Source of the DNA: an uncultured Bacillota bacterium
Lineage (GTDB): Bacteria > Bacillota_I > Bacilli_A > RFN20 > CAG-449
Length of the DNA stretch: 64,000 nucleotides
Direction: 5' to 3'
NCBI GenBank assembly: GCA_902493275.1
Contig: CABUOQ010000002.1
Span: forward strand, 30,328-94,327
Shown here: positions 8,264-49,547 of the stretch, one piece after another
Numbering within the stretch: the stretch's first letter is position 1
Layout: each line of letters starts with the position of its first letter
The notes under the pieces: generated by a model
What the model was told of the DNA's origin: nothing
Seen by the model: only the letters and a program-made list of their open reading frames with translations
The model's database searches: none
Program-made: the position numbers and the translations under genes

Positions 8264-11200
8264 TTATTTAAAATAATATTGTGTCATTCTCGCAGTTTTA
8301 GTTTTGTTATCTTCAACGAAGTGAGGAATATTTCCCATTTGAACACGTTTCAAACCTTCATTTTGTCTTTCGGCATCAGCAACAATAATCGCAATATCTA
8401 TTTGTTTTCCATCATCGATTGCTTGTTTAAATTCTGGTGCTAACTCAAAAGGAATTAACACTTCCCCAACATAACCATCACTCTTACTTGTAAACGCTAC
8501 TTCCACTTTTGATTTATCATTTATATATTTTGGATTTGTACGTACATCAGAAAAAGTGAAATAATTATGATTAGTCCAAGTTGGAGCAAATGCGGCTTGC
8601 AAAACACCTCCTTTCTCTTTGTATACTTGCATATCAGCACTTGGCATATCGGTAATAGTTGACATAAATAATTCAACGCAATCACCTAGCCAAAAATCAG
8701 AAACAGTTTTAACATTTAATAAATTATCAAAAACATCAAACCCCAAATATATGCCTTTTTCGTTATAAGTCATCATTAACTTATTTATTGCGAAATGATC
8801 TTTCAACTCCTCTGCAGTTCTTGCACTACCTTCAGCATCAGATATGCCTAATATATCAATATTGGTAATTTCATTGTTCTCCCAATCAGATAATTCACCA
8901 TTGACATTTATAGTTTTTGTTGTTGCTTTGATATCAACCTCAGGTCCAGCCTCACCATTGGCTTTGAACGCAATATTGTAATTGCTATCGTTAATCGATA
9001 TATCATTTGGTGATGAGTTACCCTCAAAAGTAACTCCACTTAGGCCTTTATCCAATGTATAGTAATTATAATTTCCATCTAAGACGATATCTTCACAGTT
9101 GACACATTGTAATAATGTATTAAAACTATCGCCAGAAGGTTGAATATAAGAGCAATCATAGAATAGATTATCGTTAATATTACTATCCCCTACCCCTCTT
9201 AAAGAAATAGAAGCATTACCATTTTTAGCAATAAAATTGTTCTCAATAGTCGCTCCATATAAAGTACCTTTTTGAGCTACGGTACCATTATTTGAAATTG
9301 CAAATATAGAAATATCACCATAAAGAGGTTCAGGCTTAATGTAGCAATTATTAATAAATTTATTATTCTTGATAGTTATATTTTGAGCTAATGTCGCTTC
9401 GTTATATACATCCATTGAAGAAGCCGCCTGAATAGCGCCATGTCCTACATTCATAAAGGTATTATTTTCAATCACAGCATCTGGAACTTGAATTAAAACG
9501 CCTCTATTTCTTTTATTACGAATGATATTATTTGAGAAAACTAACTTAGGTGTATTTGATAAAAAAGTTACACGGCAATTTCCCCATTCACCAACATTAG
9601 ACATTCTTTCTTTTACTTTAAAATCATATCCAACTGAAGTTTTTGTTACTTCTTGAATAGTGTAATATCCATTTGTAGGATTATGTCCTTCAAAGGTTTG
9701 TTCATTATAGACTGCTATTTTATCCCCTACTTGCGGTTCTGTTATTGCACTAGTAATTTTTGCAACTGACATTGATTTAGTACTTCCTCCTTCAGCTGCT
9801 GTTAATTTATACCAATATCCGTGTTTAATATTCATCGCATCATCATGTGAATTTTCAATTAAACTATTAGTTATTTGCACATCATTGTTCATGCTATTAA
9901 AATGCATTGCATCGGCAGTCGCAGTCATTAATGAAGCACTATTTTCTTTTAAAGATAAACTAAATCTATTAACATAAAGATTACTTGTTGAAGAAGAGGT
10001 TAAAGCCATTCCCGAAGCATGGTGCATAGTTATTCCTTCTAAATAAACATTTTCAGAATTTGTTATAGAAATTCCTACAGCATCATATTGCGAGAAAGAA
10101 ACAGCAACTAAAGTACCATTTCTAGGTCTAGAAATACCTGCATTAGAGAAAGTAACTTCAATTTGATAAGAAGTGCTTTCATCACCAGAAATGTCATATG
10201 TTTTAAATGCATCAACTAAGAAATTTCCACCCTCTAATGGTGTTCTATTTATTTGTCCAAATTCAACCCATGATCTTATTGATTTTTTATTAGTGATCAA
10301 TTTTTTTACTAAAGGATCAAACTCATGGTCTACTTCAATAGTTAATTTGTTATTATTTATATCACCCGCGACAATTTTGCCAGTTAAAGAGGAAGGCAAT
10401 TTAGCATCAAGAGTTATTCCGTTTAAATAAAGATTTTTACAATTATCAACAGCAAAATATCCTTTCCAATTTAAATCATTTGTAATAATAACTAAAGAAG
10501 TATTATCTCCTTCAATATAAGTACCATTTAATCCATTTAAAGATAATGTTTGACTAGAATCACTTAAATATGCTTCAAGTTCTATTTCACCACTAGGTAA
10601 TTTTATTTTTGCTTCTTTACCAGCATCGTTTAATTCTTTAGCTAAGTAAATAGCTGTTTGAAGGCGATAATAATTATTAAGTGTTCCATCTTTAAAATAT
10701 TTTTGCACTTGGCTTAATTGAATATCATTAAATTTAATGATGGATTCTGATTGCATATCAGCATCTTTTTTTACCGGATATTTTTCAACAATTAAATCTT
10801 GATTAACACCGACTAATCCTTCATCAGTTAATCCATATTTTTCTTGTGATGTTAATTCGCCATTAGAATAAGGAGATTCACTAAGTTTTTCAACAAGCTG
10901 TGAGACACTCAAATTTTTATTTGGATCATCTTCTATTACTTCAAGTTCTACCGAATCAGTTTTATTATTATCGTTAGTAGTTACACTTACTGAACAAGTA
11001 CCACTTTTTTTAGCGGTAACCACTCCAGTCTCAGAGATTTCTACACAATCATTACTAGCACTATAAGTAACCATTTTATTTGTTGCAGTTGCTGGAAGAA
11101 TTTCAGTTACCAATTGTCTTGATTCTCCAACTTTTAAAATATTATTATTTATTGTTAATGATACACTTTCAACTGGTATTAAAACCTGTGAACCTTCACT

Positions 11201-11314
11201 AGATGAATTATTACCATTAAATGAACTACTTCCAGTTTGATTATTACATGACGTTACAAATGGTAGGATTCCAATTAAAGCAACTAATGGTAATATGAAA
11301 TTTCTCTTTTTCAT
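8264..11314 (-). CDS. Surface lipoprotein with a Big_2 domain, a right-handed parallel beta-helix (pectin-lyase fold) putative glycanase and a C-terminal CBM9-like domain.
   Basis: Lipobox VTSC plus an S/N-rich tether. Big_2: VESVSLTINNNILKVGESRQLVTEILPATATNKMVTYSASNDCVEISETGVVTAKKSGT. Beta-helix-type repeats: NNIIRNKRNRGVLIQ, NNTFMNVGHGAIQ, NNKFINN, ENSHDDAMNIKHG. The C-terminus has a CBM9-like GDCVELF motif. Confidence 0.55.
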   Translation of the reverse strand: MKKRNFILPLVALIGILPFVTSCNNQTGSSSFNGNNSSSEGSQVLIPVESVSLTINNNILKVGESRQLVTEILPATATNKMVTYSASNDCVEISETGVVTAKKSGTCSVSVTTNDNNKTDSVELEVIEDDPNKNLSVSQLVEKLSESPYSNGELTSQEKYGLTDEGLVGVNQDLIVEKYPVKKDADMQSESIIKFNDIQLSQVQKYFKDGTLNNYYRLQTAIYLAKELNDAGKEAKIKLPSGEIELEAYLSDSSQTLSLNGLNGTYIEGDNTSLVIITNDLNWKGYFAVDNCKNLYLNGITLDAKLPSSLTGKIVAGDINNNKLTIEVDHEFDPLVKKLITNKKSIRSWVEFGQINRTPLEGGNFLVDAFKTYDISGDESTSYQIEVTFSNAGISRPRNGTLVAVSFSQYDAVGISITNSENVYLEGITMHHASGMALTSSSTSNLYVNRFSLSLKENSASLMTATADAMHFNSMNNDVQITNSLIENSHDDAMNIKHGYWYKLTAAEGGSTKSMSVAKITSAITEPQVGDKIAVYNEQTFEGHNPTNGYYTIQEVTKTSVGYDFKVKERMSNVGEWGNCRVTFLSNTPKLVFSNNIIRNKRNRGVLIQVPDAVIENNTFMNVGHGAIQAASSMDVYNEATLAQNITIKNNKFINNCYIKPEPLYGDISIFAISNNGTVAQKGTLYGATIENNFIAKNGNASISLRGVGDSNINDNLFYDCSYIQPSGDSFNTLLQCVNCEDIVLDGNYNYYTLDKGLSGVTFEGNSSPNDISINDSNYNIAFKANGEAGPEVDIKATTKTINVNGELSDWENNEITNIDILGISDAEGSARTAEELKDHFAINKLMMTYNEKGIYLGFDVFDNLLNVKTVSDFWLGDCVELFMSTITDMPSADMQVYKEKGGVLQAAFAPTWTNHNYFTFSDVRTNPKYINDKSKVEVAFTSKSDGYVGEVLIPFELAPEFKQAIDDGKQIDIAIIVADAERQNEGLKRVQMGNIPHFVEDNKTKTARMTQYYFK

Positions 11315-13407: not shown

Positions 13408-15147
13408 CTATTTACCTTGATTATATCGATTTAATGCATCGTTATAGCATTTTAGCAATTTATCGGCATCAAATCCTTTGAGTTCATTTATCAAACTTTG
13501 ATAGCTTTCCTCATTATAAGGATCTTTGCCATCAACCCCTCTTACATAACATGACTCTAAGTATTCTAATTGAGGATCTAATGCTGCTTTTATCGTTGTC
13601 ACATCCCCATATTCTGTGCCACTTAATTTAATTTCTCCTGGTTCAGGATTTTTTAAATAAGGTAAATATTTGCGCGACATTTGATTTAATGAAGTAATAA
13701 TATCATCATTCATTTTTTCAACAAAATCAGCGGACCAATAAAGTGCAGATGCACTTCCAACATTTGGAGTAATAGTTGCTCGATATTGTTCTTGATTTCC
13801 AGTCCAAGTAGATGGAACATTGAAAGTCCATGAAGTATGCTCTTCATTATCCCAATTCCAGTTTTCACCTTCAACACCATATGAGATCAATTGTGTTCCT
13901 AAATCGCTATACATTATATCTAATAATCTTGCTACTTCTCTAACATAAATTGATTTTTGAGGGATAGTCGCGCCATCTGGAATAAAATATCCTAATCCTA
14001 AATGTAAAGGATTACCTGTATAATATGAAGAAGTAAGCGGACCAAAAGTCACATAGTTGCTCTCATAATCATAACCAACTATCAAATATGCAGCTGCGGC
14101 AACAAAACTACCTAATCGATTTTTCATTCCCGTTAATGCTAATTGGTTGTCAGTTTTATTTGAAAAAGTACTGACATCCATCAAACCTTCACTCCACAAG
14201 GTATTCATAAATTGAAGATATTTTCTATATGCCTCAGTATATGGAACATAGGTGAAACTAGATTGATTGTTTTCAATTTCAACTCCGTATGAAACATAGC
14301 CATAACTTGCTAAAACAAAGTTTCTTAAATACTCTAATGATTTTGAAGTCACAGGTATTTCATCGTTAGAATCATCATTTAAATTAGCATCTAGCTCTTT
14401 AAAAGCTCTCAATACAGTTAAGTATTCCTCAATGGTTTTAATTTCATCAGCTTTTGGAAGAAGTTTACCATTATACCCTCCGAATTCATTATTAATATTT
14501 TCAATCCATTGCTCATTGATAAACATCTTAAATGTTAAATCTCGAGCAACATCATTTACAGATAAAGTTGAATACATTTTTCCATCACTTAATGTTACAA
14601 CTTTCTTTGCATCACTTTTTTGTATATCTACACCAAAATTATTTTCTAAGCCTTTTTTATAATTAGGCATATAATTATCAATAATATTGCCAACTTGAAT
14701 TGTTGATTCACCTACTTTATAAGAATAATTATCATCATTAAATGGAACATAAGCATCGTAATTTCTTTCAGCATATCGTACCAATTCTGAAATTGAATTA
14801 TTAAATAAAAATAGATCTGGAATTGTGCTATCGGATGACCACGCTCCAGTTCTTTGATTGGTATAAGCTGAAGTATCCGGGGTGGTGAATTCAAAATTTA
14901 ATCCTGTAATTTCTGATAAGTGTTTAAACATTACTAAATCTTTATATTCAGGATTTCCAGCACTATGTGGGGCAAATATTTTTATTGTTACTGGATCTTT
15001 AACTATCCTATATGGATTATCCTCTGTTCCGTTAGGTAAAAAATTATCAGGATTATAACTTCTATTTGATCCGGTACATCCAACAAGTGCTCCTAAAGAT
15101 AAAACCACACTTGCTATTATTGATGATATTTTTTTTATTTTGTTCAT
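13408..15147 (-). CDS. ABC transporter extracellular solute-binding lipoprotein (CUT1 family, large LplA-like type).
   Basis: Lipobox LGALVGCTGS. A 579-aa secreted protein immediately downstream of two CUT1 permease genes in the same operon. Confidence 0.65.
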   Translation of the reverse strand: MNKIKKISSIIASVVLSLGALVGCTGSNRSYNPDNFLPNGTEDNPYRIVKDPVTIKIFAPHSAGNPEYKDLVMFKHLSEITGLNFEFTTPDTSAYTNQRTGAWSSDSTIPDLFLFNNSISELVRYAERNYDAYVPFNDDNYSYKVGESTIQVGNIIDNYMPNYKKGLENNFGVDIQKSDAKKVVTLSDGKMYSTLSVNDVARDLTFKMFINEQWIENINNEFGGYNGKLLPKADEIKTIEEYLTVLRAFKELDANLNDDSNDEIPVTSKSLEYLRNFVLASYGYVSYGVEIENNQSSFTYVPYTEAYRKYLQFMNTLWSEGLMDVSTFSNKTDNQLALTGMKNRLGSFVAAAAYLIVGYDYESNYVTFGPLTSSYYTGNPLHLGLGYFIPDGATIPQKSIYVREVARLLDIMYSDLGTQLISYGVEGENWNWDNEEHTSWTFNVPSTWTGNQEQYRATITPNVGSASALYWSADFVEKMNDDIITSLNQMSRKYLPYLKNPEPGEIKLSGTEYGDVTTIKAALDPQLEYLESCYVRGVDGKDPYNEESYQSLINELKGFDADKLLKCYNDALNRYNQGK

Positions 15148-15158
15148 AGATTTCTCCT

Positions 15159-16025
15159 TTATCCTTTAACGCCACCAATAGTGACACCCTTTTCAAAATA
15201 TTTTTGAAAGAATGGGTAAATAATTAGAAGTGGTAATGATGAAACAACTATAGTTACATATTTTAGTTGTTCAGATAGATTGACATCTGTCCCTCCACCA
15301 ACTGAAGATTGATTTGAAATTAAAATATTATTTAATACATTTTGCAACGGCAATAACGATGAATCTTGTACGTACATAAGAGCATTGAAATATGAATTCC
15401 AATAACCAACCACAGCATATAAAATCATAACTGCAATTATTGGTCTACATAATGGTAGGACAATGCGAGTAAAGATTCTTACATCGCCACATCCATCAAT
15501 CATAGCTGCTTCTTGCACTTCCATAGGAATTGAAGATTGCATATAAGTACGAATAACAATGATATTAAAAACTGATATGCATCCTGGAAGAATAATTGCC
15601 CAAATTGTATTATAGAGTTTTAATTGTTGAATCAATAAATAAGTTGGAATCATTCCTCCTGAAACAAACATTGTTAATACTAAAAATAAATTAACAAACT
15701 TTCTACCTTTAAAGTCTCTTCTAGATAATGGATAAGCGCACAAAACTTGGCATGTAACCTGAATAACTGTTCCAATCGCTGTATAAATCAATGAATTTTT
15801 AAATCCTCGCCAGATGGTTTCATTTTTTAAAATCATCTTATAACCATCTAAAGTAAATTCCTGTGGAAATAGTCCAACTTCACCAGAAATAACTGCATCT
15901 GCAGAAGAAAAAGAAGAAGCGAGAACATTTATCAATGGGAATAAGAATATCAAAGCAATTATCCCCATAATAATCATTATAATTACATCAAATATTTTAT
16001 CTTTGCCTTTACTTGAACGATTCAT
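15159..16025 (-). CDS. ABC transporter permease, CUT1 family (LplC-like).
   Basis: Six predicted transmembrane segments and an EAA-loop (EAAMIDGCGDVRIFTRIVLPL). Confidence 0.8.
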   Translation of the reverse strand: MNRSSKGKDKIFDVIIMIIMGIIALIFLFPLINVLASSFSSADAVISGEVGLFPQEFTLDGYKMILKNETIWRGFKNSLIYTAIGTVIQVTCQVLCAYPLSRRDFKGRKFVNLFLVLTMFVSGGMIPTYLLIQQLKLYNTIWAIILPGCISVFNIIVIRTYMQSSIPMEVQEAAMIDGCGDVRIFTRIVLPLCRPIIAVMILYAVVGYWNSYFNALMYVQDSSLLPLQNVLNNILISNQSSVGGGTDVNLSEQLKYVTIVVSSLPLLIIYPFFQKYFEKGVTIGGVKG

Positions 16026-16040
16026 GATTTGCTCCTTTTA

Positions 16041-17012
16041 TTACCATAAAGAATTATCGCTAACTTTTTTAGAGATAAAATTACCTAAGCATAAAATGAT
16101 AATGTTAACTACAGAATTAAATAATCCTATTGCCGTAGCATAAGAATACTGAGCCTCACCATATTTTGGAAAAGATATATTATACACATAAGTAGCAATT
16201 ATATTAGAAGAGGATAAATTAGTTGATAATTGCATCAAATACACTTTTTCAAAGCCAACGCTGAGAATATTGCCAATTGACATAATAAACATAATAACCG
16301 CTAGAGGAATAATCTGAGGTAAATTAACATAGAAAATTCTTCTGATTCTTCCAGCGCCATCAATAATTGCAGCATCATGAAGATTTGGATCGACATTAGA
16401 AAGGCTACCCATATAGACAATAGACCACCAACCAAGTCCTTGCCATAATCCTGAAACGACATAAATCATACAAAAGTAATCTGGATTTTCCATTAAATTT
16501 GTAGCGTCAAATCCAAAAAAAGCAAATATTCTAGTAAATATTCCGCTATCAACTCTAAAGAACGCAAATAACATTCCTACTAAGACTGATATTGAAATAA
16601 AATATGGAGCGTACATTATTGTTTGAATTAATCTTTTATATTTTTTAGCTCGAACTTCATTTAACAATAACGCAAAAATTATTGGTAAAAGAGAGTTAAA
16701 AAATATCGAAGCTAATGACAAAGTCAAAGTATTTTTTAAAATTGTATAAAAATTAGGCGCGGTAATAAACGTATAAAAATGCTTAAACCCTCCCATACTT
16801 GTCCATGGTGAATCAAAAATACCTCTAAAAGAATCGTAATCTTTAAAAGCAATAACTAATCCTGTTAAAGGTAAATAATGAAATATAAAAATATATATGA
16901 GTGTTGGTAAAGTCATTATAAAAAGAGCAAGACCAATTTTAGAATACCATTTTCTTTTTGCTGGTGTTCTAGATAATGTTTCGATTTCTGTTTTAGATAC
17001 TTTTGCTTCCAT
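16041..17012 (-). CDS. ABC transporter permease, CUT1 family (LplB-like).
   Basis: EAA-loop (HDAAIIDGAGRIRRIFYVNLPQI) and polytopic. No ATPase gene is present in this operon. Confidence 0.8.
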   Translation of the reverse strand: MEAKVSKTEIETLSRTPAKRKWYSKIGLALFIMTLPTLIYIFIFHYLPLTGLVIAFKDYDSFRGIFDSPWTSMGGFKHFYTFITAPNFYTILKNTLTLSLASIFFNSLLPIIFALLLNEVRAKKYKRLIQTIMYAPYFISISVLVGMLFAFFRVDSGIFTRIFAFFGFDATNLMENPDYFCMIYVVSGLWQGLGWWSIVYMGSLSNVDPNLHDAAIIDGAGRIRRIFYVNLPQIIPLAVIMFIMSIGNILSVGFEKVYLMQLSTNLSSSNIIATYVYNISFPKYGEAQYSYATAIGLFNSVVNIIILCLGNFISKKVSDNSLW

Positions 17013-17284
17013 TTAAATGAATTTCCTTCTTCAAGCGCTTTCATTATAATTTATTATTCAGATTTATACCATAAATTAAAATGACTATAATTATATACTT
17101 TTTTGCACTTTTAAATTAATTATCAATATCATTAAAATTGATAAGTTTTTTTGTTTAAAACAAAAATAGCCTATTTATAGCCTTTATTTATTATAACGTT
17201 CCATTTTTAGATAATATTATTTTTTATCTTTTTAAATATAAAAAACAAAACTATAGAAAAAATTTTTTTTATTTAAGATAATAA

Positions 17285-17302
17285 ATATATATATATATAT
17301 AT
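17285..17302. repeat. (AT)9 dinucleotide microsatellite in the promoter region of the AraC gene at 17326.
   Basis: The run atatatatatatatatat sits 24-41 nt upstream of the ATG and just upstream of the AAGGAG RBS. Confidence 0.8.
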
Positions 17303-17325
17303 GTTATTCATTTAAGGAGTATTTT

Positions 17326-18177
17326 ATGACCAAAGAATCTTTTTTTAATAGAAGTTTATGTTTTAGAAATATAACTGATAATTTTAACTCTGACATCAGC
17401 GCTTCGATAATTGGATATGAAGCGTGCAATAAAAATAAACCAATTATTGATTCAAATAAATCATGCTATATAATTCATTTTATTGCAAAAGGCTCTGGTT
17501 TTTTAATAAGTCATAATAAAAAAGAAATAATTCATAAAAACGAATGCTTCCTAATTGAACCAAATTCTCACGTTAAATATCGTCCTAATCCTCGTGATCC
17601 TTGGTCATATTTTTGGATTGAAATAAATGGCAATCTTTTTAAAAAAATATGTGAGCGAATTGATTTTAAGAAAAACAATATGCACTTAAAATTAGAGCAC
17701 TTTAATGAAATCATCGATGAATTTATCGAGATTTTCGATGAGACATTATACATTCACAATCAATATAGTGAATTTCTTCGAATCAGTAGTAAAATTATGA
17801 ACATTTTTTCAAGATTAATCGAAGAGTATTGCATTGAAGATTCTTCTGATTCTTTAACAAAAGAAGAATCACAAATCAAAAAAATAATTGAATACGTCAA
17901 TAATAACTACACTTCACCAGATATTTCTATAAATAAAATTGCTAACCACTTTTATTTTTCTCAGGCATATCTAACGAGAATATTTAAAAAAAGCACCGGT
18001 ATTTCTCCAATGAAATATATCATAATGTTAAGAATGAGACGCAGTGTCGAGCTATTGAATAAAAAAACGTTTTCAATTTCTCAAATCGCTTATTGTATTG
18101 GTTATAAAAACCAATTCTATTTTTCAAAAGAATTTAAAAAGTACTTTGGATTATCACCTTCAAAGTACAATAATTAA
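17326..18177 (+). CDS. AraC-family transcriptional regulator (cupin-type N-terminal ligand domain plus C-terminal HTH).
   Basis: RBS AAGGAG. The N-terminal cupin-like region (FWIEINGNLF) and the C-terminal AraC HTH (ISINKIANHFYFSQAYLTRIFKKSTGISPMKYI) are both present. It is divergent from the ABC importer operon. Confidence 0.7.
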   Translation: MTKESFFNRSLCFRNITDNFNSDISASIIGYEACNKNKPIIDSNKSCYIIHFIAKGSGFLISHNKKEIIHKNECFLIEPNSHVKYRPNPRDPWSYFWIEINGNLFKKICERIDFKKNNMHLKLEHFNEIIDEFIEIFDETLYIHNQYSEFLRISSKIMNIFSRLIEEYCIEDSSDSLTKEESQIKKIIEYVNNNYTSPDISINKIANHFYFSQAYLTRIFKKSTGISPMKYIIMLRMRRSVELLNKKTFSISQIAYCIGYKNQFYFSKEFKKYFGLSPSKYNN

Positions 18178-19492: not shown

Positions 19493-21226
19493 CTATTTAA
19501 TCAATTTTTCAGTTATAGAATCAAACAAATGAATCTTTGAAATGTCAAATACTAATTTTAGTTCATCACCAGAATTTACTAAAGTCTTTGCATGAATTTT
19601 TGAAACTATCTCTGAATCTTCAAAATTAGTATGTATATAATACTCGTGTCCAAGTAATTCTGCAACAGAAATTGTAAGATTAAATTCTTGACTTATGGCT
19701 TCATCAGTCAATATTCTATTACTTTGGTAAATATCTTCTGGTCGAATACCAAAAATAATTTGAATTTCTTTGCTTGTATCTATTAGTTTTAATCTATTTA
19801 TCGCGTCGATTAAATAATTACGACGATGATTTGAAGTTTCACATATAGCTAATTCTTTTTCTAATTTTGCTAATGTATCCGCTAATTTAGCATTATCTTT
19901 TTCCAACTTCATTTTTTCTTTTACTTCATTTATACTCGCTAGATAATTCTTCTTTTCAACAAATTTATCTTCTAATTCTTCTAGTTCTTTAATTAATAAA
20001 TGTAATTCTTTGCTATAGAAATCTTTTACTGCAACATCAAAATCATCAGTCAATTTTATTTTAGTGCCTTGTTTAAAAATCACTTGACCATTAATATATG
20101 TTGCATTAATTAAGTTCATAGCTGGTGAACCAATGAATGTCGCAACAAATACATTAGCTGGATGATTATAAATCTCAATTGGAGTGCCAATTTGCTGAAT
20201 ATAACCTTTATTCATAACGACAATTCTTGTTGCCATGGTCATAGCTTCAGTTTGATCATGTGTAACATATATTGTAGTAGCGTTTAAAGCATTATGTAAC
20301 TTAATAATTTCGCTTCTCATAGCCACTCTTAATTTGGCATCAAGATTGCTCAAAGGTTCATCCATCAAAAATACTTTGGCATTTTTAACAATAGCTCTTC
20401 CTAAGGCTACACGTTGACATTGTCCACCAGATAAAGCTTTAGGCTTACGATCTAAGTATTCAGAAATTTGTAAAATATCAGCTGCTTTTTCCACTCTAGA
20501 GCGAATTTCATCTTTTGGCAAATGCTTGTTTTCATAAACTTCTACTGGAGTTTTTTCAAGATATTCAATTTTTTCTTCTAACTCTTTTAAATCTTTTTCA
20601 ATTGATTCTTTTTCATCTTCATTAGCAAGCAATTGATATTTTTTTAAATTACGATACTGTTCTTTTAAAACTTTTAAAGCCTTCTTATTGATGCCTAGTA
20701 TTGGTTTACCATTTTCATCAACTTTCAAAGTTGGAAAACGTTTTATTTTTAAACCAAAAGACATATTCCCTGCCACTGACATATGAGGATAAAGAGCATA
20801 ACTTTGAAATACCATAGCAATATCACGATCTTTTGGATGAAGATCATTGGCATATGTCTTATCAATAAATAAATCGCCAGAAGTTATATCTTCTAAGCCA
20901 GCAATCATTCTTAAAGTCGTAGATTTGCCACATCCCGATGGTCCAACAAAAACTACAAATTCATGTTGCTTTATATCTAAATTAAAATCAAATACAGCTT
21001 GAACCTTATTATCATAAATCTTATTAATATGTCTTAAAGATATATATGATTCACTTGGTGCTTTCTTTATTTTTTTAGAATTCTTTTTTTGATAAGCTAC
21101 CATTTCTTCATATATTCTAGTTCTTTGCTTATATAATTGTTTTTCTTTTAATTTTAGTTCTCTTTTTTTGTTTTTAGCTTCTAATTTATCTGAAACTATT
21201 TTCTTATCTAAATCGCGATTCGACAT
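19493..21226 (-). CDS. MsmX/MalK-type sugar ABC transporter ATP-binding protein with coiled-coil insertions.
   Basis: Walker [11 protein letters not shown]-loop [14 protein letters not shown], signature [14 protein letters not shown], Walker [12 protein letters not shown] and H-loop VTHDQ. There is an approximately 60-aa K/E-rich insert between the Q-loop and the signature motif, a second K/E-rich insert in the C-terminal regulatory domain, and a Lys-rich N-terminal extension. The track start at 21244 (MKKEQD) encodes the AAGGAG RBS for the second Met (MSNRDL, ATG at 21224-21226), so the start is set to 21226. Confidence 0.75.
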
Positions 21227-21351
21227 ATCTTGCTCCTTTTTCATAGCTTAGTTTAGCAAAATATATATTTTGACGGAAGCATATAAGGCTTTTATATCAG
21301 TATTTTGCTATAAATAAGTCAAAAAAATATATATTCTTCAAGTATTAACTA

Positions 21352-22140
21352 CTAATCAATAATTCCCTTACGATAATTAATTTTAAAGGCTTTTGCAAGT
21401 TGAATTAATTGTTCATTGGTTATCGATTGATAAATCTTTTTATCATAAATTTTCATATATATCTCAGCTGCTTTTTCAATTGTTTCAATTAAGCCAAATA
21501 CTTCATCTAAGCTTCTACCTGTGCAAAATATTCCATGTTGTGCCCAAACGACAGAACGATACTCTTTCATTTTTTCAGCTGTAGCAATTCCGATTTCTTC
21601 TCCGCCGCATAAAATCCAAGGTAATACAGCTACTCCTTCAGGAAAAACCACAATAGATTCAGTTTGCATCTTCCAAAGGTCTTCGCTCCAATGATTAGAA
21701 TCTAAATCATGTACATGACTCATGCATATGACATTAGTTGGATGACAATGAATAACTAGGCGATGCAAAGGATCAACTTTTAATCTTTCAATATGACATT
21801 TTAAGTGAGTAGGAGCTTCTGAAGTTGGTCGACCACCATCTTCGTATCCCCAAAGTAATGATAAAGTTTTTCCATCTTTTACTTTTATAATTCCTAAATT
21901 ATTTTTAGGGTCTTTTAAACAATTTTTAAAATATTTGCCAGTACCCGTTATTATAAAATATTTACCAATTAAAGGAGTCAAATCATAATCGCAAATAAAA
22001 GTTCTTTTCTCATTTAAATCCGTGATTTGTTTAGCTTCTTCTTCAGAGATAATATATGATAAATTACCCCCGTTTCTTTCATCCCACCCATGTTTATATA
22101 ATAAATCTAAAATTTCTGTAACTTCTTCTATACAATTCAT
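21352..22140 (-). CDS. rhaD: Rhamnulose-1-phosphate aldolase (class II aldolase).
   Basis: GWDERNGGNLS, GTGKYFKN and VFPEGVAVLPW closely match recalled E. coli RhaD (GWDERNGGNLT, GSGKFFRN, VFPDGVGILPW). The start overlaps the rhaA stop (ATGA). Confidence 0.85.
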   Translation of the reverse strand: MNCIEEVTEILDLLYKHGWDERNGGNLSYIISEEEAKQITDLNEKRTFICDYDLTPLIGKYFIITGTGKYFKNCLKDPKNNLGIIKVKDGKTLSLLWGYEDGGRPTSEAPTHLKCHIERLKVDPLHRLVIHCHPTNVICMSHVHDLDSNHWSEDLWKMQTESIVVFPEGVAVLPWILCGGEEIGIATAEKMKEYRSVVWAQHGIFCTGRSLDEVFGLIETIEKAAEIYMKIYDKKIYQSITNEQLIQLAKAFKINYRKGIID

Positions 22141-23375
22141 TTTGTACCTCTTTCTAATAATACATTCTTTTCATATTTTTTAACTTGTTCATACCAATCT
22201 TGTTCACTTGCAACTTTTTGCTTGTTTAAATACTCACACCAAACATCTTGCCAAGGCAATGTCTTAATTTCTTCTTGTAAAGCAAGTAAATGTGAATAAT
22301 CCGCTGCATCTTGATATTCTTTTAAGATATCCCATGGTGTTAATAAAGCTTTTAAAATTGCTTTCTGCATATTTCTAGTTCCTATTACAATAGCCGCGAC
22401 ACGATTAATAGATCCATCGAAATAATCTAAACCTAAATATGATTTATTTAGTGCTTTACATCTTACTAATTCATCCGCTACTTCTTGTAAGTCATCGTTT
22501 AATTTTAAAACATGATCAGAATCCCAGCGAACAGGACGCGAAACATGAAATGCTAGGCGGGGTGAGAATAATAATAAAGATGATATTTTATCAGCAACAT
22601 TTTCTGTAGGATGGAAATGCCCCGTATCTAATAAACATAAAATATTGTTCTTCATCGCGTATGATAAATAAAATTCATTAGATCCTACCGTATAAGATTC
22701 AACACCAATTCCAAATACTTTTGATTCAACTGAAACATCAACTAAGTTTTTATTATATTTATATTTTAATATTTCATCTAAAGATTCTTTCAATCTTTTA
22801 CGTGGCCCTTCACGGTCAGAAGGAACTTCCTTCAATCCATCAGGAATCCATATATTGCATAGTGATTTCTGATGTAATTCTTTAGCAAAATATTCACATA
22901 CTTTAATACTATTAATACAATGCTCAATCCAATAATCACGCACCTCTTTATTTGGAGAAGATAAGCTTAAGCCATTTACAAGCATTGGTGAAGAAAAAAT
23001 TGTTGGATTAAAATCTAAGCCTAAGCCTCTATTATAGGCATATTCAACCCATCTTTTAAAATTTGCAGGAGTTATATCTCTTCTATCAACAATACTATCT
23101 GATTGATAAATAGCATGTAAATTGATTTTCTTTTTTCCTGGAATATACTTTAATGCTTCATCCAAGTCTGCCGTTAGTTCTTCAAAATTTCTTGCTTTTC
23201 CTGGATAATTACCTGTCGATTGAATTCCACCTGTTAACGCTTTTTTATTTTCAAAGCCATTAACATCATCTAATTGCCAACAATGAATTGAAATTGTTAC
23301 TTTAGATAACTCTTTTAAAACTTTGTTAACATCGATTCCATATTTTGCGTATATTTCTCTAGTGTCTTTTTTCAT
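22137..23375 (-). CDS. rhaA: L-rhamnose isomerase.
   Basis: SIHCWQLDDVNGFEN, LTGGIQSTGNYPGKARN, LDTGHFHPTE and VSRPVRWDSDHV match RhaA (SMHCWQGDDVSGFEN, LTGGIQATGNYPGKARN, GHFHPTE, VSRPVRWDSDHV). Confidence 0.9.
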   Translation of the reverse strand: MKKDTREIYAKYGIDVNKVLKELSKVTISIHCWQLDDVNGFENKKALTGGIQSTGNYPGKARNFEELTADLDEALKYIPGKKKINLHAIYQSDSIVDRRDITPANFKRWVEYAYNRGLGLDFNPTIFSSPMLVNGLSLSSPNKEVRDYWIEHCINSIKVCEYFAKELHQKSLCNIWIPDGLKEVPSDREGPRKRLKESLDEILKYKYNKNLVDVSVESKVFGIGVESYTVGSNEFYLSYAMKNNILCLLDTGHFHPTENVADKISSLLLFSPRLAFHVSRPVRWDSDHVLKLNDDLQEVADELVRCKALNKSYLGLDYFDGSINRVAAIVIGTRNMQKAILKALLTPWDILKEYQDAADYSHLLALQEEIKTLPWQDVWCEYLNKQKVASEQDWYEQVKKYEKNVLLERGTK

Positions 23376-23376: not shown

Positions 23377-24684
23377 TTAATCCTCCATTTGTACTTTTAT
23401 ATTTCCTAAAGATGTAGCCTCGATTGGTAAGGCGATTATTTTTTTCTTAGCGTATTGTTCTACCAATTCATTTAGATATTTATTTTTAGCGCCGCCTCCT
23501 ACGATATAGCATTTATCATATTTATTCCCTGTTATATTCTGCAAATCTTTTAACGCTTGATCATAAGAGAATGCCAATGAATGATATACTGCATTAATTA
23601 AATCGTTATCATCTTTTGGTAAAGGTTTATTTTTTTGTTTAAGATAATCTAAAATCGCTTCTTTCATATTAATTGGCGATAAAAAAGCTTTATCATTAAC
23701 ATCAAATATTTCATGATAACTCGATTGTTTAGCCATAGTAACCATCTCAGGAACCTCTATTGCTAATTCTTTAGATAAGTTATTTATAATCCACATTCCC
23801 ATGATATTTTTTTGAAATCTAATATAGTTTGGACCATATTCATTAGAATAATTAGCGTCTTTAGCAACTTCACTATTAATGGCCTTAGGAATTTTAACTC
23901 CTAGCAATGACCATGTTCCCGAAGAGATATATGGCGAATTATCTTCCATAAATATTCCTTCAACTGCAGAGGCTGTATCATGGCTAGCACATAATTTAAC
24001 TAAAATATTACCTCCAACTTCATCTGAAACATCTTTTTTTAAATAGCCTAATTTATATCCAGGCTTATATACTGGATCATTAAACACATTAGATATGCCT
24101 AGTTTAGACAAAATTTTTTGCGAATAGTCCAATGTTTCACATGAGCAAAGTCCCATGGTGGAAGCATTAGTGTATTCATGTACTTTAACTCCAGTTAATT
24201 TATAAAGTAAATACTCTGGAATCATCAAAAATGTTTTCGCTTTTTGAAGTCGATTAGATTTTTTGTCTTCATAAAGCTGATATATAGAATTAAACACCTG
24301 AAATTGGCACCCTGTTATCTTATATAAATCATTAAATGATATTTTTTGATGCACTTCATCAATTATTTTTTGAGTTCTATTATCACGATATGCATAGACT
24401 GGTAATATTTCATTATCGAGCTCATCTATTAATACATAATCAACTCCCCAAGTGTCTATACTTAATGATTCAATTTGAGGATATTTACTTAAAGAAATTC
24501 TTATACCATTTTTCACTTCTTTAAATAGTTCATCAACATCCCAAATTAAATGGCCATCTTTGTTTTTTACTTCGTTTTTAAAACGATATACCTCTATTAA
24601 GCATATTTTTCCCTTATCGTCTTTATAACCTATTATATGTCTTCCAGAAGAGGCTCCGATATCAATTGCTAAATAATATTTCAT
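23377..24684 (-). CDS. rhaB: Rhamnulokinase (FGGY family).
   Basis: AYRDNRTQ, IMGMWII, VGGGAKNKYLNEL and IEATSLGNI match recalled RhaB (AYRDSRT, IMGLWLL, VGGGCQNTLLNQL, VEASTLGNI). RBS AAGGAG. Confidence 0.85.
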   Translation of the reverse strand: MKYYLAIDIGASSGRHIIGYKDDKGKICLIEVYRFKNEVKNKDGHLIWDVDELFKEVKNGIRISLSKYPQIESLSIDTWGVDYVLIDELDNEILPVYAYRDNRTQKIIDEVHQKISFNDLYKITGCQFQVFNSIYQLYEDKKSNRLQKAKTFLMIPEYLLYKLTGVKVHEYTNASTMGLCSCETLDYSQKILSKLGISNVFNDPVYKPGYKLGYLKKDVSDEVGGNILVKLCASHDTASAVEGIFMEDNSPYISSGTWSLLGVKIPKAINSEVAKDANYSNEYGPNYIRFQKNIMGMWIINNLSKELAIEVPEMVTMAKQSSYHEIFDVNDKAFLSPINMKEAILDYLKQKNKPLPKDDNDLINAVYHSLAFSYDQALKDLQNITGNKYDKCYIVGGGAKNKYLNELVEQYAKKKIIALPIEATSLGNIKVQMED

Positions 24685-24716
24685 ATTTCTCCTTTAATCT
24701 CATGATATCTTTTAAT

Positions 24717-24744
24717 ACTATAAATAAATATAACATTATTGCAA
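24717..24744 (-). promoter_or_regulatory. Candidate sigma-A promoter of rhaBAD: -35 TTGCAA (24739-24744), 16-nt spacer, -10 TATAGT (24717-24722).
   Basis: Read on the minus strand. The -35 hexamer lies inside the promoter-proximal copy of the 18-bp direct repeat, and the element is 33 nt upstream of the rhaB ATG. Confidence 0.4.
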
Positions 24745-24766
24745 ATTTATATAACATTATTGTAAA
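24728..24766. promoter_or_regulatory. Two 18-bp direct repeats ATATAACATTATTG(C/T)AAA phased 21 bp apart: candidate AraC-family (RhaR/RhaS-like) operator between rhaB and the divergent AraC gene.
   Basis: Repeat A is 24728-24745 and repeat B is 24749-24766, with 17 of 18 positions identical. Seventeen-bp half-sites in direct repeat with a 4-bp gap are the classical AraC/RhaS site architecture. Repeat A overlaps the -35 of the rhaB promoter. Repeat B contains TGTAAAAT (24761-24768), an extended -10-like element for the plus-strand AraC gene. Confidence 0.55.
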
Positions 24767-24791
24767 ATGATTTTAAGAAAGAAATATAAAT

Positions 24792-25601
24792 ATGCATCGA
24801 AGAATACCATTATCAAACCATTTAAACTCATCTCTTTTATATATATCTGAGACTGAACTCGATAAAGATTTTAAAGCATCATATCATTCACATCCAAATC
24901 TAGAATTATTGTTAATAAATGAAGGAACTGGTAATTTAATAACTACAAATCGCCGAATATCCATTAAAAAAGGAGATTTAATAATTATTAATTCTCATTC
25001 ATTACATTGTGAAGTTTCATCTAGCAAATGCCGTTTTTACTCAATAGGTGTCAATCGTTTAGATGCTAATTTAGACAATAATTTTTCTAAGAAAATAATA
25101 AAATTGCCATTAGATAAAACCGACTATGATAGCATTAATTTTTTATACCATTTTATAATAACAGAAGCTGAAAATAAAAAAATGCATTTTGAAGATATCA
25201 TATTTAATGCCTTCCAGCAAATTAAATATTTCATTCAAAGAACTTATCAAATAAAGTTTATTTCATCATCCAAAGAATACGATAATAGCGTTATTTCCAG
25301 CGCTAAAAACATAATTGAAAATTATTTTTATACAAATATTAATATCAACGATTTATCACATCGCTTATCGATTTCACCATCAACTCTATCCCACCAATTT
25401 AAAAAAATAACTGGTCGTAGCGTCATTGAATATAAACATATATGTCAAATTAATGAAGCTTGTAATTTGTTAAAAATAACCGATATGAATATTCTTGACA
25501 TTGCCTTTGCAACTGGATTCACTAGTTCATCTTACTTCAGTGAAATGTTTAAAAAAATGATTAAATTGTCACCAAAAGAATACCGTTTAATGAACAAATA
25601 A
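24792..25601 (+). CDS. AraC-family regulator, probable rhamnose-responsive activator (RhaR/RhaS-like), divergent from rhaBAD.
   Basis: N-terminal cupin (YHSHPNLELLLINEGTGNL...HSLHCE) and C-terminal AraC HTH (DLSHRLSISPSTLSHQFKKITGRSVIEYKHI...ILDIAFATGFTSSSYFSEMFKK). Confidence 0.7.
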   Translation: MHRRIPLSNHLNSSLLYISETELDKDFKASYHSHPNLELLLINEGTGNLITTNRRISIKKGDLIIINSHSLHCEVSSSKCRFYSIGVNRLDANLDNNFSKKIIKLPLDKTDYDSINFLYHFIITEAENKKMHFEDIIFNAFQQIKYFIQRTYQIKFISSSKEYDNSVISSAKNIIENYFYTNININDLSHRLSISPSTLSHQFKKITGRSVIEYKHICQINEACNLLKITDMNILDIAFATGFTSSSYFSEMFKKMIKLSPKEYRLMNK

Positions 25602-25605: not shown

Positions 25606-25625
25606 GTCTCGAAATTAATCGAGAC
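25606..25625 (-). terminator. Rho-independent terminator between the convergent AraC and DJ-1 genes.
   Basis: Stem gtctcga/tcgagac (7 bp) with loop aattaa. On the minus strand it is followed by a T-run (the complement of aaaaa at 25601-25605). The plus-strand T-tract is weak. Confidence 0.6.
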
Positions 25626-25630: not shown

Positions 25631-26179
25631 TTATTCTCCTTTACAATTTAGCCAGACTTGTCTAGCTTTATTTTCATCATATAAGTAATAAATAATAGCT
25701 AATGCAAACTCAATCGTATAATACATCGATTTCGCAGTTATAAAATTTTTAGCAATTACTACACCTTTATCCTTTTGATAGTTTCCTGAAATACAATATT
25801 TTTCAAACCCAGGAAAAATTGTATAATCTAAATTATTAAAGTATCCTTTTCTTCCCAAAAGATGAGGTGCTGCACAGATAGAAGCTACTAGTTTATCACT
25901 TTTTATGAATTGAGAAATAAGTAACTCAACCCGTGAATCTTCATTTAAAATCGTAAAAGCTGCTTTACCACCAGGTAAAATCAAATAATCATAATCACTT
26001 TCTTTTATCTCATCAAGATATTTCTCTGCAATTATTTGATATCCAGACTTAGTAAAAACTTGCAATGTTTGCATCACTGATACTAAAGTGATTTCTTCAC
26101 CAGCTCTTTTGAGAACATCAACGCAACTTAAAGCTTCTGTCTCTTCAAAATAATCACCTAATAAAATGATTCCTTTCAT
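25631..26179 (-). CDS. DJ-1/PfpI-family protein (class I glutamine-amidotransferase-like).
   Basis: LILPGGKAAF...ASICAAPHLLGRKG, with a nucleophile-elbow Cys in the ICAAP context. Confidence 0.7.
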   Translation of the reverse strand: MKGIILLGDYFEETEALSCVDVLKRAGEEITLVSVMQTLQVFTKSGYQIIAEKYLDEIKESDYDYLILPGGKAAFTILNEDSRVELLISQFIKSDKLVASICAAPHLLGRKGYFNNLDYTIFPGFEKYCISGNYQKDKGVVIAKNFITAKSMYYTIEFALAIIYYLYDENKARQVWLNCKGE

Positions 26180-39226: not shown

Positions 39227-39302
39227 TGGTGGACGCTGCCAGGATCGAACTGACGACCTCTTCCGTGTGAAGGAAACGCTCTCCCGACTGAGCTAAGCGT
39301 CC
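39227..39302 (-). tRNA. tRNA-Val (anticodon CAC), 76 nt including the encoded CCA.
   Basis: The reverse complement GGACGCTTAGCTCAGTCGGGAGAGCGTTTCCTTCACACGGAAGAGGTCGTCAGTTCGATCCTGGCAGCGTCCACCA folds into a cloverleaf with a 7-bp acceptor stem, D-stem GCTC/GAGC, anticodon stem TTTCC/GGAAG with loop TTCACAC, and T-loop TTCGATC. Confidence 0.8.
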
Positions 39303-39390: not shown

Positions 39391-39467
39391 TGGTGGGCCT
39401 GAAAAGACTTGAACTTACGACCTCGCCCTTATCAGGGGCGCGCTCTAACCAGCTGAGCTACAGGCCC
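39391..39467 (-). tRNA. tRNA-Ile (anticodon GAT), 77 nt including the encoded CCA.
   Basis: The reverse complement GGGCCTGTAGCTCAGCTGGTTAGAGCGCGCCCCTGATAAGGGCGAGGTCGTAAGTTCAAGTCTTTTCAGGCCCACCA has anticodon stem CGCCC/GGGCG with loop CTGATAA. There is one T-T mismatch in the T-stem. Confidence 0.8.
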
Positions 39468-43761: not shown

Positions 43762-44643
43762 TTAAAACGGCAATATAATTATATTTTGATTACATAAAAC
43801 AGATAAAGTTATTAATCCACTTAATAACAATAATGAAAATACAAATGAAAAACTATCGCGCATATGCCATTTAAGCAATCGATACCTCGTTCTTTTTTGA
43901 CTAGGATCATATCCTCGAGCTTCCATCGCATTTGCTAATTCATCACTTCTTTGGAAAGATGAAATAAAAAGTGGAATGATTAAAGATACGATTGCTCGAA
44001 CTTTTTCTTTTAGCTTTCCATCTTGAAAATCCACTCCTCGAGAGGATTGTGCTTTCATAATTCTATCAGTTTCATCTAATAATGTTGGAATAAAACGTAG
44101 CGCTAAAGAGATAGTCATAGCTATCTCATGAACTGGAAGATGAACTACTTTAAACGGTGTTAAAAACCATTCTAAAGCATAAGTTAAATCCATTGGTTTA
44201 GTCGTTGACGTCAATATTAAAGTCAATGATATCATTAACGCTAGACGAATAAAAATATAAAATGTATTAATAAAAGCTGAAAAATAAATTGTCCAATTAA
44301 TTCCTGGAATTGTGAAATGGTCAATACTTTCATTCAACCAAGGAATATAAATCATTATTGATTCTTTAATTGTAAATAAATTAATAATGAATAAAAACAA
44401 CATCATGAACCACATCATCTTAAGTTGTTTAAACAACTGTTTTAAAGTAATATGAGCAATGCGCATTAATATATATATAAATACAATTAATCCACCATAT
44501 ATTGCGAAATTAAACCATGTTGAATTATATCCTAGAAATATAATTACCATTAGGCAAATCATCGAAATAATTTTTGTTCTAGGATCTAACCGATGTAAAA
44601 ATGTATTATATGGCGCATATCTTCCTAATGAAATATTAGCCAT
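43762..44643 (-). CDS. ecfT: Energy-coupling factor transporter transmembrane component.
   Basis: Polytopic, with the conserved C-terminal ARG..R-type region (MEARGYD). Sits downstream of two ecfA genes. Confidence 0.75.
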   Translation of the reverse strand: MANISLGRYAPYNTFLHRLDPRTKIISMICLMVIIFLGYNSTWFNFAIYGGLIVFIYILMRIAHITLKQLFKQLKMMWFMMLFLFIINLFTIKESIMIYIPWLNESIDHFTIPGINWTIYFSAFINTFYIFIRLALMISLTLILTSTTKPMDLTYALEWFLTPFKVVHLPVHEIAMTISLALRFIPTLLDETDRIMKAQSSRGVDFQDGKLKEKVRAIVSLIIPLFISSFQRSDELANAMEARGYDPSQKRTRYRLLKWHMRDSFSFVFSLLLLSGLITLSVLCNQNIIILPF

Positions 44644-47589: not shown

Positions 47590-48540
47590 TTATTCGTATT
47601 CTCTAAAGCCAAGTCCAATCGCAGCAAGCTTTTCCTTGACTTCTTTAAGTGATTTTTTACCAAGATTTTTGACCTTCATCATATCTTCTTCTGTCTTTTG
47701 AGTTAATTCCATTACTGTTGCAATAGAAGCTCTCTTTAAGCAGTTATATGAACGAACTGATAAATCAAGTTCATCGATAGTCATATCTTGATATTTATTT
47801 TTAGGTTCATCTATTTTTTCTGCTAATACATCAGTAGATTGTGCAATTTCTGTCAATCCGACAAATAAATCAAAGTGAGCAACTAATATTTTAGCCGCTA
47901 GGGAAATTGCCTCTTGAGGTAGCATAGAACCATTGGTTGTTATTTCCATATCTAAGCGATCATATGAAGTTTTTTGACCAACTCTTGAAGGTTGAACATC
48001 ATATTGAACTTTAGTAATTGGTGAGTAGTTAGAATCAGTTGGAATCATTCCAATAGGGAAATTTTTTGCTTTATTTCCCTCTGATGTAACATAACCTCTG
48101 CCATTTCTTGCATAGATGGTCATAACAAGGTGTCCCTCCTCATTGCAATGAGCAAGAACTAAATCTTTATTTACAATGGAAACACCTGCTGAACATTGTA
48201 TATCACCTGCGGTGACAATTGCAGGTCCTTTAACATCAATAAATAATTTTTGTGTTGCTTCTGAATCTTCATCAATTTTTAATACTAAATCTTTTAAATT
48301 TAGTATAATCTCAGTGACGTCTTCTTTAACTCCATCTAATGAAGAGAATTCATGACGTGCACCCTCAACTTCAATTGCAAAGACACTAGCACCTGGAAGA
48401 GAAGATAATAATACTCTTCTTAAAGCATTACCAAGAGTTGTACCAAATCCGCGCTCGAGTGGTTCGATTGAGAATTTACCAACATTAGTTGCTACATCAT
48501 ATGTAGCGATGTTAAATTCTGGTTTTTCAAATTTTTTCAT
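47590..48540 (-). CDS. rpoA: DNA-directed RNA polymerase subunit alpha.
   Basis: MKKFEKPEFNIATYD... 316 aa, between rpsK and rplQ. Confidence 0.92.
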   Translation of the reverse strand: MKKFEKPEFNIATYDVATNVGKFSIEPLERGFGTTLGNALRRVLLSSLPGASVFAIEVEGARHEFSSLDGVKEDVTEIILNLKDLVLKIDEDSEATQKLFIDVKGPAIVTAGDIQCSAGVSIVNKDLVLAHCNEEGHLVMTIYARNGRGYVTSEGNKAKNFPIGMIPTDSNYSPITKVQYDVQPSRVGQKTSYDRLDMEITTNGSMLPQEAISLAAKILVAHFDLFVGLTEIAQSTDVLAEKIDEPKNKYQDMTIDELDLSVRSYNCLKRASIATVMELTQKTEEDMMKVKNLGKKSLKEVKEKLAAIGLGFREYE

Positions 48541-48602
48541 TGATTTTCCTCCCTGGTTAATTTGAAAGTTTGATTTGTAATTGTAATTTCAAATTCGCCA
48601 TA

Positions 48603-48998: not shown

Positions 48999-49014
48999 AA
49001 ATCAATTCTCCTTT

Positions 49015-49392: not shown

Positions 49393-49411
49393 TTTTCATT
49401 TCCTCCTAAAA

Positions 49412-49525: not shown

Positions 49526-49547
49526 AATAATTTCCTCCTAAGTGATA

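Follow-up and report, generated by a model that had tools for sequence, protein, structure and literature searches.

Two nearly identical copies of a short sequence lie head to tail between a set of genes for L-rhamnose catabolism and a divergent gene for an AraC-family regulator in the genome of an uncultured Bacillota bacterium. This arrangement raises three questions: whether the repeats form an operator, which protein would occupy it, and how its occupation would affect the promoters of the two divergent transcription units. We addressed these questions in the window, i.e., the whole stretch of 64,000 nucleotides that was analyzed, and by comparison with related loci from other genomes.

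The repeat and its neighbouring genes

The identity of the genes on both sides of the repeats was examined with NCBIfam and Pfam profiles. A previous annotation made from the letters of the window, termed the sequence-only reading in the following, had assigned the rha genes and the divergent AraC gene, and these gene calls hold:

21352-22140, minus strand: rhaD, rhamnulose-1-phosphate aldolase (NF002963, 318.8 bits; cut-off 170)
22137-23375, minus strand: rhaA, L-rhamnose isomerase (NF002203, 612.8 bits; cut-off 572)
23377-24684, minus strand: rhaB, rhamnulokinase (best match TIGR02627 with 422.9 bits, below the equivalog cut-off of 527.95; Pfam FGGY_N and FGGY_C)
24792-25601, plus strand: AraC-family regulator of 269 amino acids with an N-terminal cupin sugar-binding/dimerisation domain and a C-terminal double helix-turn-helix
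25631-26179, minus strand: DJ-1/PfpI protein

Since the next gene after the regulator gene encodes the DJ-1/PfpI protein, the locus contains a single regulator gene. In the region between rhaD and a long downstream gene for a MalK-like ATPase, neither a terminator-like hairpin nor a minus-strand promoter-like match was found. An ABC ATPase gene likewise follows directly after rhaD in L005, one of the related loci described below, and we speculate that transcripts from the rhaB promoter may extend into the MalK-like ATPase gene.

The regulator has the domain architecture of the AraC/XylS family, with a C-terminal double helix-turn-helix and an N-terminal cupin that is followed by dimerisation helices. 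The Pfam families AraC_binding/cupin cover residues 25-88 (AraC_binding 30.9 bits, cut-off 21.1) and the families HTH_18/HTH_AraC residues 188-265 (HTH_18 77.3 bits, cut-off 33.6; HTH_AraC 61.7 bits). An AlphaFold model built from a 22-sequence alignment (pLDDT 90.5, pTM 0.81) contains beta strands between residues 2 and 106, followed by a pair of long helices (109-128 and 133-151) and by seven helices in the C-terminal part (166-268). When this model was compared with the PDB using Foldseek, ToxT and Rns matched it over the full length. Matches to the sensor domain included those of AraC (2arc, TMt 0.68), the lactose sensor BgaR (6nwh, 0.78), and RhaR (5u93, 0.64), and AraC-type DNA-binding domains reached TMt values of 0.83-0.91, with 0.83 for the DNA-binding domain of AraC (2k9s), which was also the nearest solved structure by sequence (E = 1.8e-11). 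The protein scored below every NCBIfam equivalog cut-off, namely 90.3 bits for AraC (NF007860, cut-off 208), 65.6 bits for RhaS (NF010028, cut-off 288), and 51.3 bits for RhaR (NF010025, cut-off 525). We therefore regard it as an AraC-family sugar sensor that is not orthologous to the rhamnose regulators of E. coli.

Both repeats are located in the spacer between rhaB and the regulator gene (24685-24791), which is 107 nt long and has an A+T content of 85%:

24728-24745, plus strand: half-site A, ATATAACATTATTGCAAA, nearer to the rhaB promoter
24749-24766, plus strand: half-site B, ATATAACATTATTGTAAA, distal from the rhaB promoter and terminating in TTGTAAAAT
24726-24767, plus strand: the proposed complete tandem operator, 42 bp consisting of two 21-nt units, AAATATAACATTATTGCAAAT and TTATATAACATTATTGTAAAA

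The direct repeats with one mismatch and 21-bp phasing that the sequence-only reading had described were confirmed. Half-sites A and B are identical at 17 of 18 positions, the sole mismatch being C/T at 24742/24763, and their starts are 21 nt apart. A repeat search likewise found the head-to-tail arrangement, with a unit of 21 nt whose two copies (24722-24742 and 24743-24763) are 86% identical. Of 20,000 first-order Markov sequences with the composition of the 107-nt spacer, 17 contained two direct copies, offset by 10-45 nt, that agreed in at least 17 of 18 positions, so that the repeat is unlikely to be due to chance even when considered alone. The sequence from 24726 to 24767 and its counterparts in the relatives show the spacing of the araI type, i.e., two direct half-sites of about 17 bp with a period of 21 bp. 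Reading the site as an inverted repeat was rejected, as the best arms were just 72-77% complementary and not conserved; the palindrome CAATATTG of the relatives is missing in the window, which has CATTATTG instead.

Using a position weight matrix derived from seven other lineages, with the window left out, the tandem site at 24726-24767 obtained a score of 37.7 bits, whereas the second-best independent tandem reached 2.2 bits when both strands of the 64 kb were scanned. A search for further copies had been suggested, e.g., upstream of position 17012 or 21226, but pattern search, matrix scan, and repeat search revealed none: the matrix scan did not detect the motif upstream of 17012 and 21244, and the spacers 17000-17340 and 21230-21360 do not contain direct repeats. 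Two candidates located inside open reading frames were taken as chance matches. One is the only other match to the motif with up to three mismatches, at 11407, the other an isolated half-site from the matrix scan, at 43766-43786. A rhamnose transporter with the site was not found in the 64 kb. The Rfam search of the whole window identified two tRNAs only, with no RNA element at the locus, and inspection by eye revealed no match to a cre-like (CcpA) site and no central CG.

Conservation of the site in related loci

A search of 5.8 billion database proteins yielded 23 homologues of the regulator at E ≤ 1e-20, none of which is named. One of them is 99% identical, all others 56% or less. Alignment-based scans of genomes and metagenomes provided 19 related loci, and more were obtained by four exact-protein look-ups. 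The loci originate from genomes of uncultured gut Bacilli/'Mollicutes', including Coprobacillus sp. CAG:826, and their regulators are 36-56% identical. In most of these loci, the regulator gene is oriented divergently to rhaB-rhaA-rhaD, as in the window. A tandem site of the form ATATAACAATATTGCAA-N4-TATAACAATNTTGTA is located 25-45 nt upstream of the regulator start codon at every locus except for L019, which is a remote partial match.

The conservation of the site was quantified as mean pairwise identity in an ungapped alignment of seven lineages anchored on the site. The value was 78% for the tandem site, 35% for the 18 nt on its rhaB side, and 39% for the 24 nt on its regulator side, which represents a clear phylogenetic footprint. 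This conservation across lineages supports the proposal of the sequence-only reading that an AraC/XylS direct-repeat operator is present between rhaB and the divergent AraC gene and overlaps both promoters. On the basis of these sequence comparisons, we consider it well supported that the tandem repeats represent a conserved operator of the AraC/XylS direct-repeat type and not a chance occurrence.

According to the information content of the matrix columns, the most informative parts of a half-site are two blocks, TATAAC and TTGYA, the second of which begins 10 bp after the start of the first; in half-site A of the window, the blocks are TATAAC and TTGCAA at the same distance. Domains of the MarA and AraC type contact two successive major grooves with their double helix-turn-helix, and the 10-bp register of the two blocks fits one such domain bound to two successive major grooves. 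The sequence shared by both halves differs between lineages: it is ACATTATTG in the window, ACAATNTTG in L001, L004, and L008, ACTATNTTG in L016, and ACTATCTTGCTA in L021, where both halves carry TATAACTATCTTGCTATT and are identical at all 18 positions. The halves thus tend to vary jointly across lineages, as would be expected if a single DNA-binding domain reads both. The number of matches between A and B half-sites was only modestly higher within a genome (14.6 of 18) than between genomes (13.1 of 18). One difference between the halves is persistent: half-site A contains TTGCAA in eight of nine lineages, half-site B contains TTGTA in all of them.

The two promoters and their proposed control by the site

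The promoter elements assigned on both sides of the site are the following:

24702-24707, minus strand: -10 region of rhaB, TATCAT, in a TAnnAT column conserved across the relatives
24724-24729, minus strand: weak -35 region of rhaB, ATTTAT, assigned from its spacing of 16 nt to the -10 region and sharing 2-4 bp with the edge of the operator
24689-24694, minus strand: ribosome-binding site of rhaB, AAGGAG, read from the sequence
24717-24722, minus strand: TATAGT, the -10 region of the sequence-only reading; present and specific to the window, probably not the regulated promoter
24739-24744, plus strand: TTGCAA, likely -35 region of the regulator gene, inside half-site A, from the promoter scan
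24763-24768, plus strand: TAAAAT, likely -10 region of the regulator gene, overlapping the end of half-site B, from the promoter scan

The assignment of the rhaB promoter is derived from the comparison with the relatives. All 14 sites facing a target gene have a TAnnAT hexamer at a distance of exactly 18 nt from the site edge, and any other offset was observed at no more than two of the 14. In these spacers, TAnnAT has a background frequency of 4.7%, and neither of the two sites that face no gene has the hexamer at the 18-nt offset. The -35 column of the relatives reads ATTTAA, ATTTAT, ATTTTG, or ATTTTT. The sequence-only reading had proposed TTGCAA-16-TATAGT as promoter of rhaB. Its sequence elements are indeed present, but their function as rhaB promoter is not supported, as they occur in this window only; the columns corresponding to TATAGT read AAAGCG, ATGGAA, etc., in the relatives and are not -10-like. 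Because the conserved -10 region sits 15 bp further downstream, the repeats are placed upstream of the -35 region and touch it, rather than spanning the -35 region and the spacer.

From the position of TATCAT, transcription of rhaB is predicted to start near 24695, about 7 nt past the -10 region. The resulting leader would be very short, approximately 11 nt, and begin at the AAGGAG ribosome-binding site. Similarly short leaders are found in most relatives, with the exception of the L001/L011 group, and no structure was detected in the predicted rhaB leader (z = -0.03). Relative to this start, half-site A would span about -33 to -50 and half-site B about -54 to -71.

Loci with a different gene organization show to which gene each element belongs. 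In L007, a paralogue of the regulator and the site are located opposite an ABC transporter operon, and in L022 opposite nagB-nagA; both have TATAAT at the fixed offset. In L006, the regulator gene lies behind another operon on the same strand. The site is kept there with nothing facing it, and the -10 column reads AAAAAA. In L023, the regulator gene and rhaB are no longer neighbours, as two genes are inserted between them, and both the regulator gene and rhaB have a copy of the site: at the regulator-side copy, the -10 column reads CTTTTT, and at the copy immediately preceding rhaB, TATAAT occupies the fixed distance and is followed by the usual short leader. Hence, the site goes with the regulator gene and the -10 region at the fixed distance goes with the target gene, as would be expected for a site that activates the target and also serves in autoregulation.

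On the opposite strand, the promoter scan gave TTGCAA-18-TAAAAT as its sole plus-strand hit upstream of the regulator gene. The pairing of TTGCAA and TAAAAT holds in most relatives, and TAWWAT-like hexamers are present in the -10 column of most of them. The TAAAAT element in repeat B that the sequence-only reading had assigned to the regulator gene was thus recovered by the scan and is kept in most relatives. Its description as an extended -10 region at TGTAAAAT (24761-24768) is incorrect, as the TG directly abuts TAAAAT and is not separated from it by one base. Since this promoter lies entirely under the operator, autorepression by occlusion is the simplest expectation, and the regulator likely represses its own synthesis. 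This is the weaker half of the model, because the regulator -10 region is less uniformly conserved; its column is poor in L005 and L017 (TAGGGT or TAAGGT) and in L020 and L021 (CTTTTT or CTATTT). Some loci, such as L005 and L016, may use a -10 region placed for a leaderless transcript.

In our view, the site at 24726-24767 is probably the cognate operator of the adjacent AraC-family regulator, which would act from it as a class II activator of rhaBAD and as a repressor of its own gene. The identity of the binding protein and of the effector, and whether each promoter is activated or repressed, are deduced from the arrangement described above. The regulator would bind as a dimer, each subunit setting its two helix-turn-helix motifs on one half-site of about 18 bp. 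The sugar, presumably L-rhamnose, would bind to the regulator, which would then most likely recruit RNA polymerase and switch on rhaB-rhaA-rhaD. Activation would be of class II from about -33 to -71, with the poor -35 region ATTTAT touched by the proximal half-site, comparable to araI1-araI2 in PBAD. As the bound site would also cover the -35 region TTGCAA and the -10 region TAAAAT of the divergent regulator promoter, repression of the regulator's own synthesis would most likely follow.

The same operator could also serve the same regulator as a repressor of rhaBAD, with TTGCAA (24744-24739)-16-TATAGT (24722-24717) as the active promoter, whose -35 region and spacer the protein would block until freed by rhamnose. 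This promoter fits the consensus at 9 of 12 positions and is on paper stronger than ATTTAT-16-TATCAT. It is overlapped by half-site A, so that binding would cause repression rather than activation if this promoter were in use. We nevertheless consider a repressor unlikely, as TTGCAA-16-TATAGT is not conserved in the relatives, whereas the downstream TAnnAT is kept throughout. Promoter-like matches are frequent by chance in A+T-rich DNA, the scan of 300 nt yielding 5 of them compared to 3.1 ± 1.6 expected from shuffled sequences, and the studied AraC proteins with a cupin domain that act on tandem repeats next to a weak -35 region, i.e., AraC and the Bacteroides rhamnose regulator, are activators (PMC3870299).

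Two further explanations deny the repeat its role in rhaBAD control. The conserved sequence might mainly represent the core promoter of the regulator gene, or the target of another, unlinked factor, with an incidental symmetry and rhaBAD being controlled elsewhere. A core promoter would agree with the detection of TTGCAA-18-TAAAAT in the scan, with the systematic C in half-site A and T in half-site B, which fits a promoter constraint, and with the retention of the site next to the regulator gene when no target is facing it (L006 and L023). It leaves unexplained the conservation of TATAAC, the 21-bp register, the joint changes of the half-sites, the fixed 18-nt distance to a -10 region on the opposite strand, and the second copy in L023, which lies directly upstream of rhaB and far from the regulator promoter; we therefore regard this explanation as quite improbable. 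The near-identity of the copies (17/18) and their head-to-tail order would also be compatible with a recent functionless 21-bp tandem duplication in an A+T-rich spacer caused by replication slippage. This is hardly credible, as at least 12 distinct lineages, with regulators of 41-56% identity and flanking sequences down to about 35% identity, share the two-copy layout. The flank identity of 35% also argues against a recent horizontal copying of one element.

Relation to known systems and significance

The site had previously been labelled as being of the RhaS/RhaR type. This label is wrong, since the site has the geometry of AraC sites, with direct repeats 3-4 bp apart, and the regulator stays far below both cut-offs. 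RhaS and RhaR of E. coli bind inverted repeats that are 16-17 bp apart (PMC3870299; PMC11983282). The window shares with the E. coli system the rhaBAD pathway, the protein superfamily, the predicted overlap with the -35 region, and the predicted response to rhamnose, and the sensor domain of RhaR resembles the model of the regulator. It differs from it in the orientation of the repeats and in having one regulator gene, whereas E. coli uses a cascade of two regulators, encoded in tandem by rhaS-rhaR, together with CRP.

The closer parallel is AraC at araI1-araI2, an activator whose direct repeats are separated by 4 bp and share four base pairs with the -35 region (PMC11983282). Common features are the cupin and the double helix-turn-helix, direct half-sites of about 17-18 bp with a distance of 3-4 bp and a period of 21 bp, a proximal half-site that overlaps a weak -35 region as in PBAD (in the window according to the predicted promoter), and a divergent, probably autoregulated regulator gene. 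In contrast to AraC, with which it is not orthologous, the regulator has half-sites of the form TATAAC-N4-TTGCA instead of TAGC-N7-TCCATA. No CRP site is present, and the likely promoter of the regulator gene lies inside the proposed activating site and not beside a separate operator. Looping is an unlikely means of repression here, since the 107-bp spacer could not accommodate distant O1/O2 sites.

Tandem direct repeats in a 21-bp register that abut the -35 region are also a feature of XylS at Pm and of other class II activators of the AraC/XylS family. The effectors of XylS are benzoates, its motif is different, and the sequence relationship to the regulator of the window is limited to the DNA-binding domain.

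For rhamnose utilization, at least five non-orthologous groups of AraC-family regulators have been inferred (Rodionova et al., 2013; PMC3870299). That study, which covered 55 genomes, predicted direct repeats with a 21-bp periodicity for AraC-type rhamnose regulators of Bacillales, Enterococcus, and Bacteroides, with motifs unique to each group, and RhaR of Bacteroides thetaiotaomicron is a proven activator (PMC3870299). The kind of switch proposed here is therefore already known. The locus resembles these systems in the position of the AraC gene next to the rha genes, the 21-bp direct repeats, and the small local regulon, a likeness drawn from the published descriptions; it differs from them in its lineage of uncultured, genome-reduced gut Bacilli/'Mollicutes', which lies outside the 55 genomes. 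Our literature search did not find an experimental study of such a site in Gram-positive bacteria.

The locus is thus an ordinary but well-supported instance of a sugar switch whose type is already known and does not change the understanding of AraC-type regulation. New are the lineage, the specific motif, the precise promoter geometry, and the very compact 107-bp spacer that has no room for distal operators. The comparison with related genomes corrected a promoter call from a single sequence that looked plausible but was probably wrong. As a compact cassette of 107 bp, the spacer with its regulator might serve as a rhamnose-inducible module for low-GC Firmicutes or Mollicutes-like hosts.

For a poorly sampled lineage of uncultured gut bacteria, the analysis provides a testable model of rhamnose catabolism that comprises an operator, a promoter, a probable transcription start, and autoregulation. 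As a tentative extension, which we consider possible but doubtful, the regulators might constitute a clade-specific AraC subfamily of gut Bacilli/'Mollicutes' that uses one minimal 42-bp two-way switch without distal operators or looping, with paralogues acting on a nearly identical operator at nagB-nagA, at the ABC transporter operon, and at an operon for an FGGY kinase, a DUF4432 protein, and an aldolase. If this is true, the operator shared by the paralogues would raise the possibility of cross-talk between sugar regulons.

Genes around the rhamnose operon in the window

Downstream of rhaD, the last gene of the minus-strand rhaB-rhaA-rhaD operon, two genes follow on the same strand.

19493-21244, minus strand: MalK/UgpC-like ABC ATPase, 583 aa
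18174-19484, minus strand: 436-aa protein with an RDD-family domain at residues 268-386

The ATPase gene lies 107 nt downstream of rhaD, and no terminator-like hairpin was found between the two in the window. An ABC ATPase gene is likewise located directly 3' of rhaD in L005, a related locus carrying a homologue of the AraC-family regulator of the window. The MalK/UgpC-like ATPase of the window exceeds the usual length by about 200 aa; it is extended at the N terminus, and residues 86-298 make up an ABC domain drawn out relative to the 137-position model. For the 436-aa protein, the RDD-family domain was the sole domain detected and no NCBIfam match was obtained.

A second AraC-family regulator gene is located divergent to a sugar ABC permease operon (13408-17012), which also contains two large ORFs.

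17326-18177, plus strand: second AraC-family regulator, 283 aa
13408-15147, minus strand: large ORF, 579 aa
11315-13405, minus strand: large ORF, 696 aa

The 313-nt spacer between regulator and operon (17013-17325) is very A+T-rich, with a (TA)n run near 17284-17303, and neither a copy of the rha operator nor direct repeats were found in it. The 696-aa and 579-aa ORFs gave no Pfam match at E ≤ 1e-5, and in a 1016-aa ORF upstream (8264-11314) Big_2 was the sole domain. These three ORFs may encode an uncharacterised binding protein and glycosidases.

On the other side of the rhamnose operon, the AraC-family regulator gene next to the rha operator and a DJ-1/PfpI gene (25631-26179) are convergent and separated by a 29-nt gap, within which a hairpin was read directly from the sequence.

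25606-25625: hairpin GTCTCG-AAATTAAT-CGAGAC

Since a run of T comes after the hairpin on the minus strand, it probably terminates DJ-1 transcription and may act bidirectionally. Further along the window, the following genes were present, and the G+C content rises from about 0.29 to 0.36 at 48000-60000.

39230-39302, minus strand: tRNA gene
39394-39467, minus strand: tRNA gene

The rhaB leader and rhaB gene in related loci

In the group of the related loci L001 and L011, rhaB has a leader with roughly 45 additional nucleotides, and a perfect palindrome lies in this leader after the -10 region and before the ribosome-binding site of rhaB.

L001:3870-3895: TTGCATCACCATGCAA
L011, equivalent position: TTGTATTAAAAATACAA

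Because the changes between the two stems are compensatory, the palindrome is predicted to be either a second operator or else a leader hairpin. No leader palindrome of this type is present in the window.

The rhaB gene of L005, a locus from the MAG Bacilli bacterium UW_MP_BACIL2_1, appears split into two ORFs.

L005:2590-3965: rhaB as ORFs of 227 and 226 aa (translation table 11)

Possible causes of this split are a frameshift, pseudogenisation, misassembly or stop-codon reassignment.

A doubled operator and the operators of paralogous regulators

The L023 regulator is 41% identical to that of the window. In this locus, two small ORFs without family match sit between the regulator gene and rhaB, and the tandem site occurs twice.

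L023:357-398: tandem site
L023:1943-1984: tandem site

The copy on the rhaB side has a TATAAT at the fixed distance of 18 nt from the site edge; the copy on the regulator side lacks it.

Three paralogous regulators (36-48% identical) have a tandem operator that closely resembles the one in the window.

L022:1928-1969: operator, paralogue adjacent to nagB-nagA
L007:3929-3970: operator, paralogue adjacent to an ABC transporter operon
L006:3948-3989: operator, paralogue adjacent to an FGGY kinase-DUF4432-class II aldolase operon

The latter type of operon also adjoins in L023. Cross-talk by way of such similar operators is conceivable.
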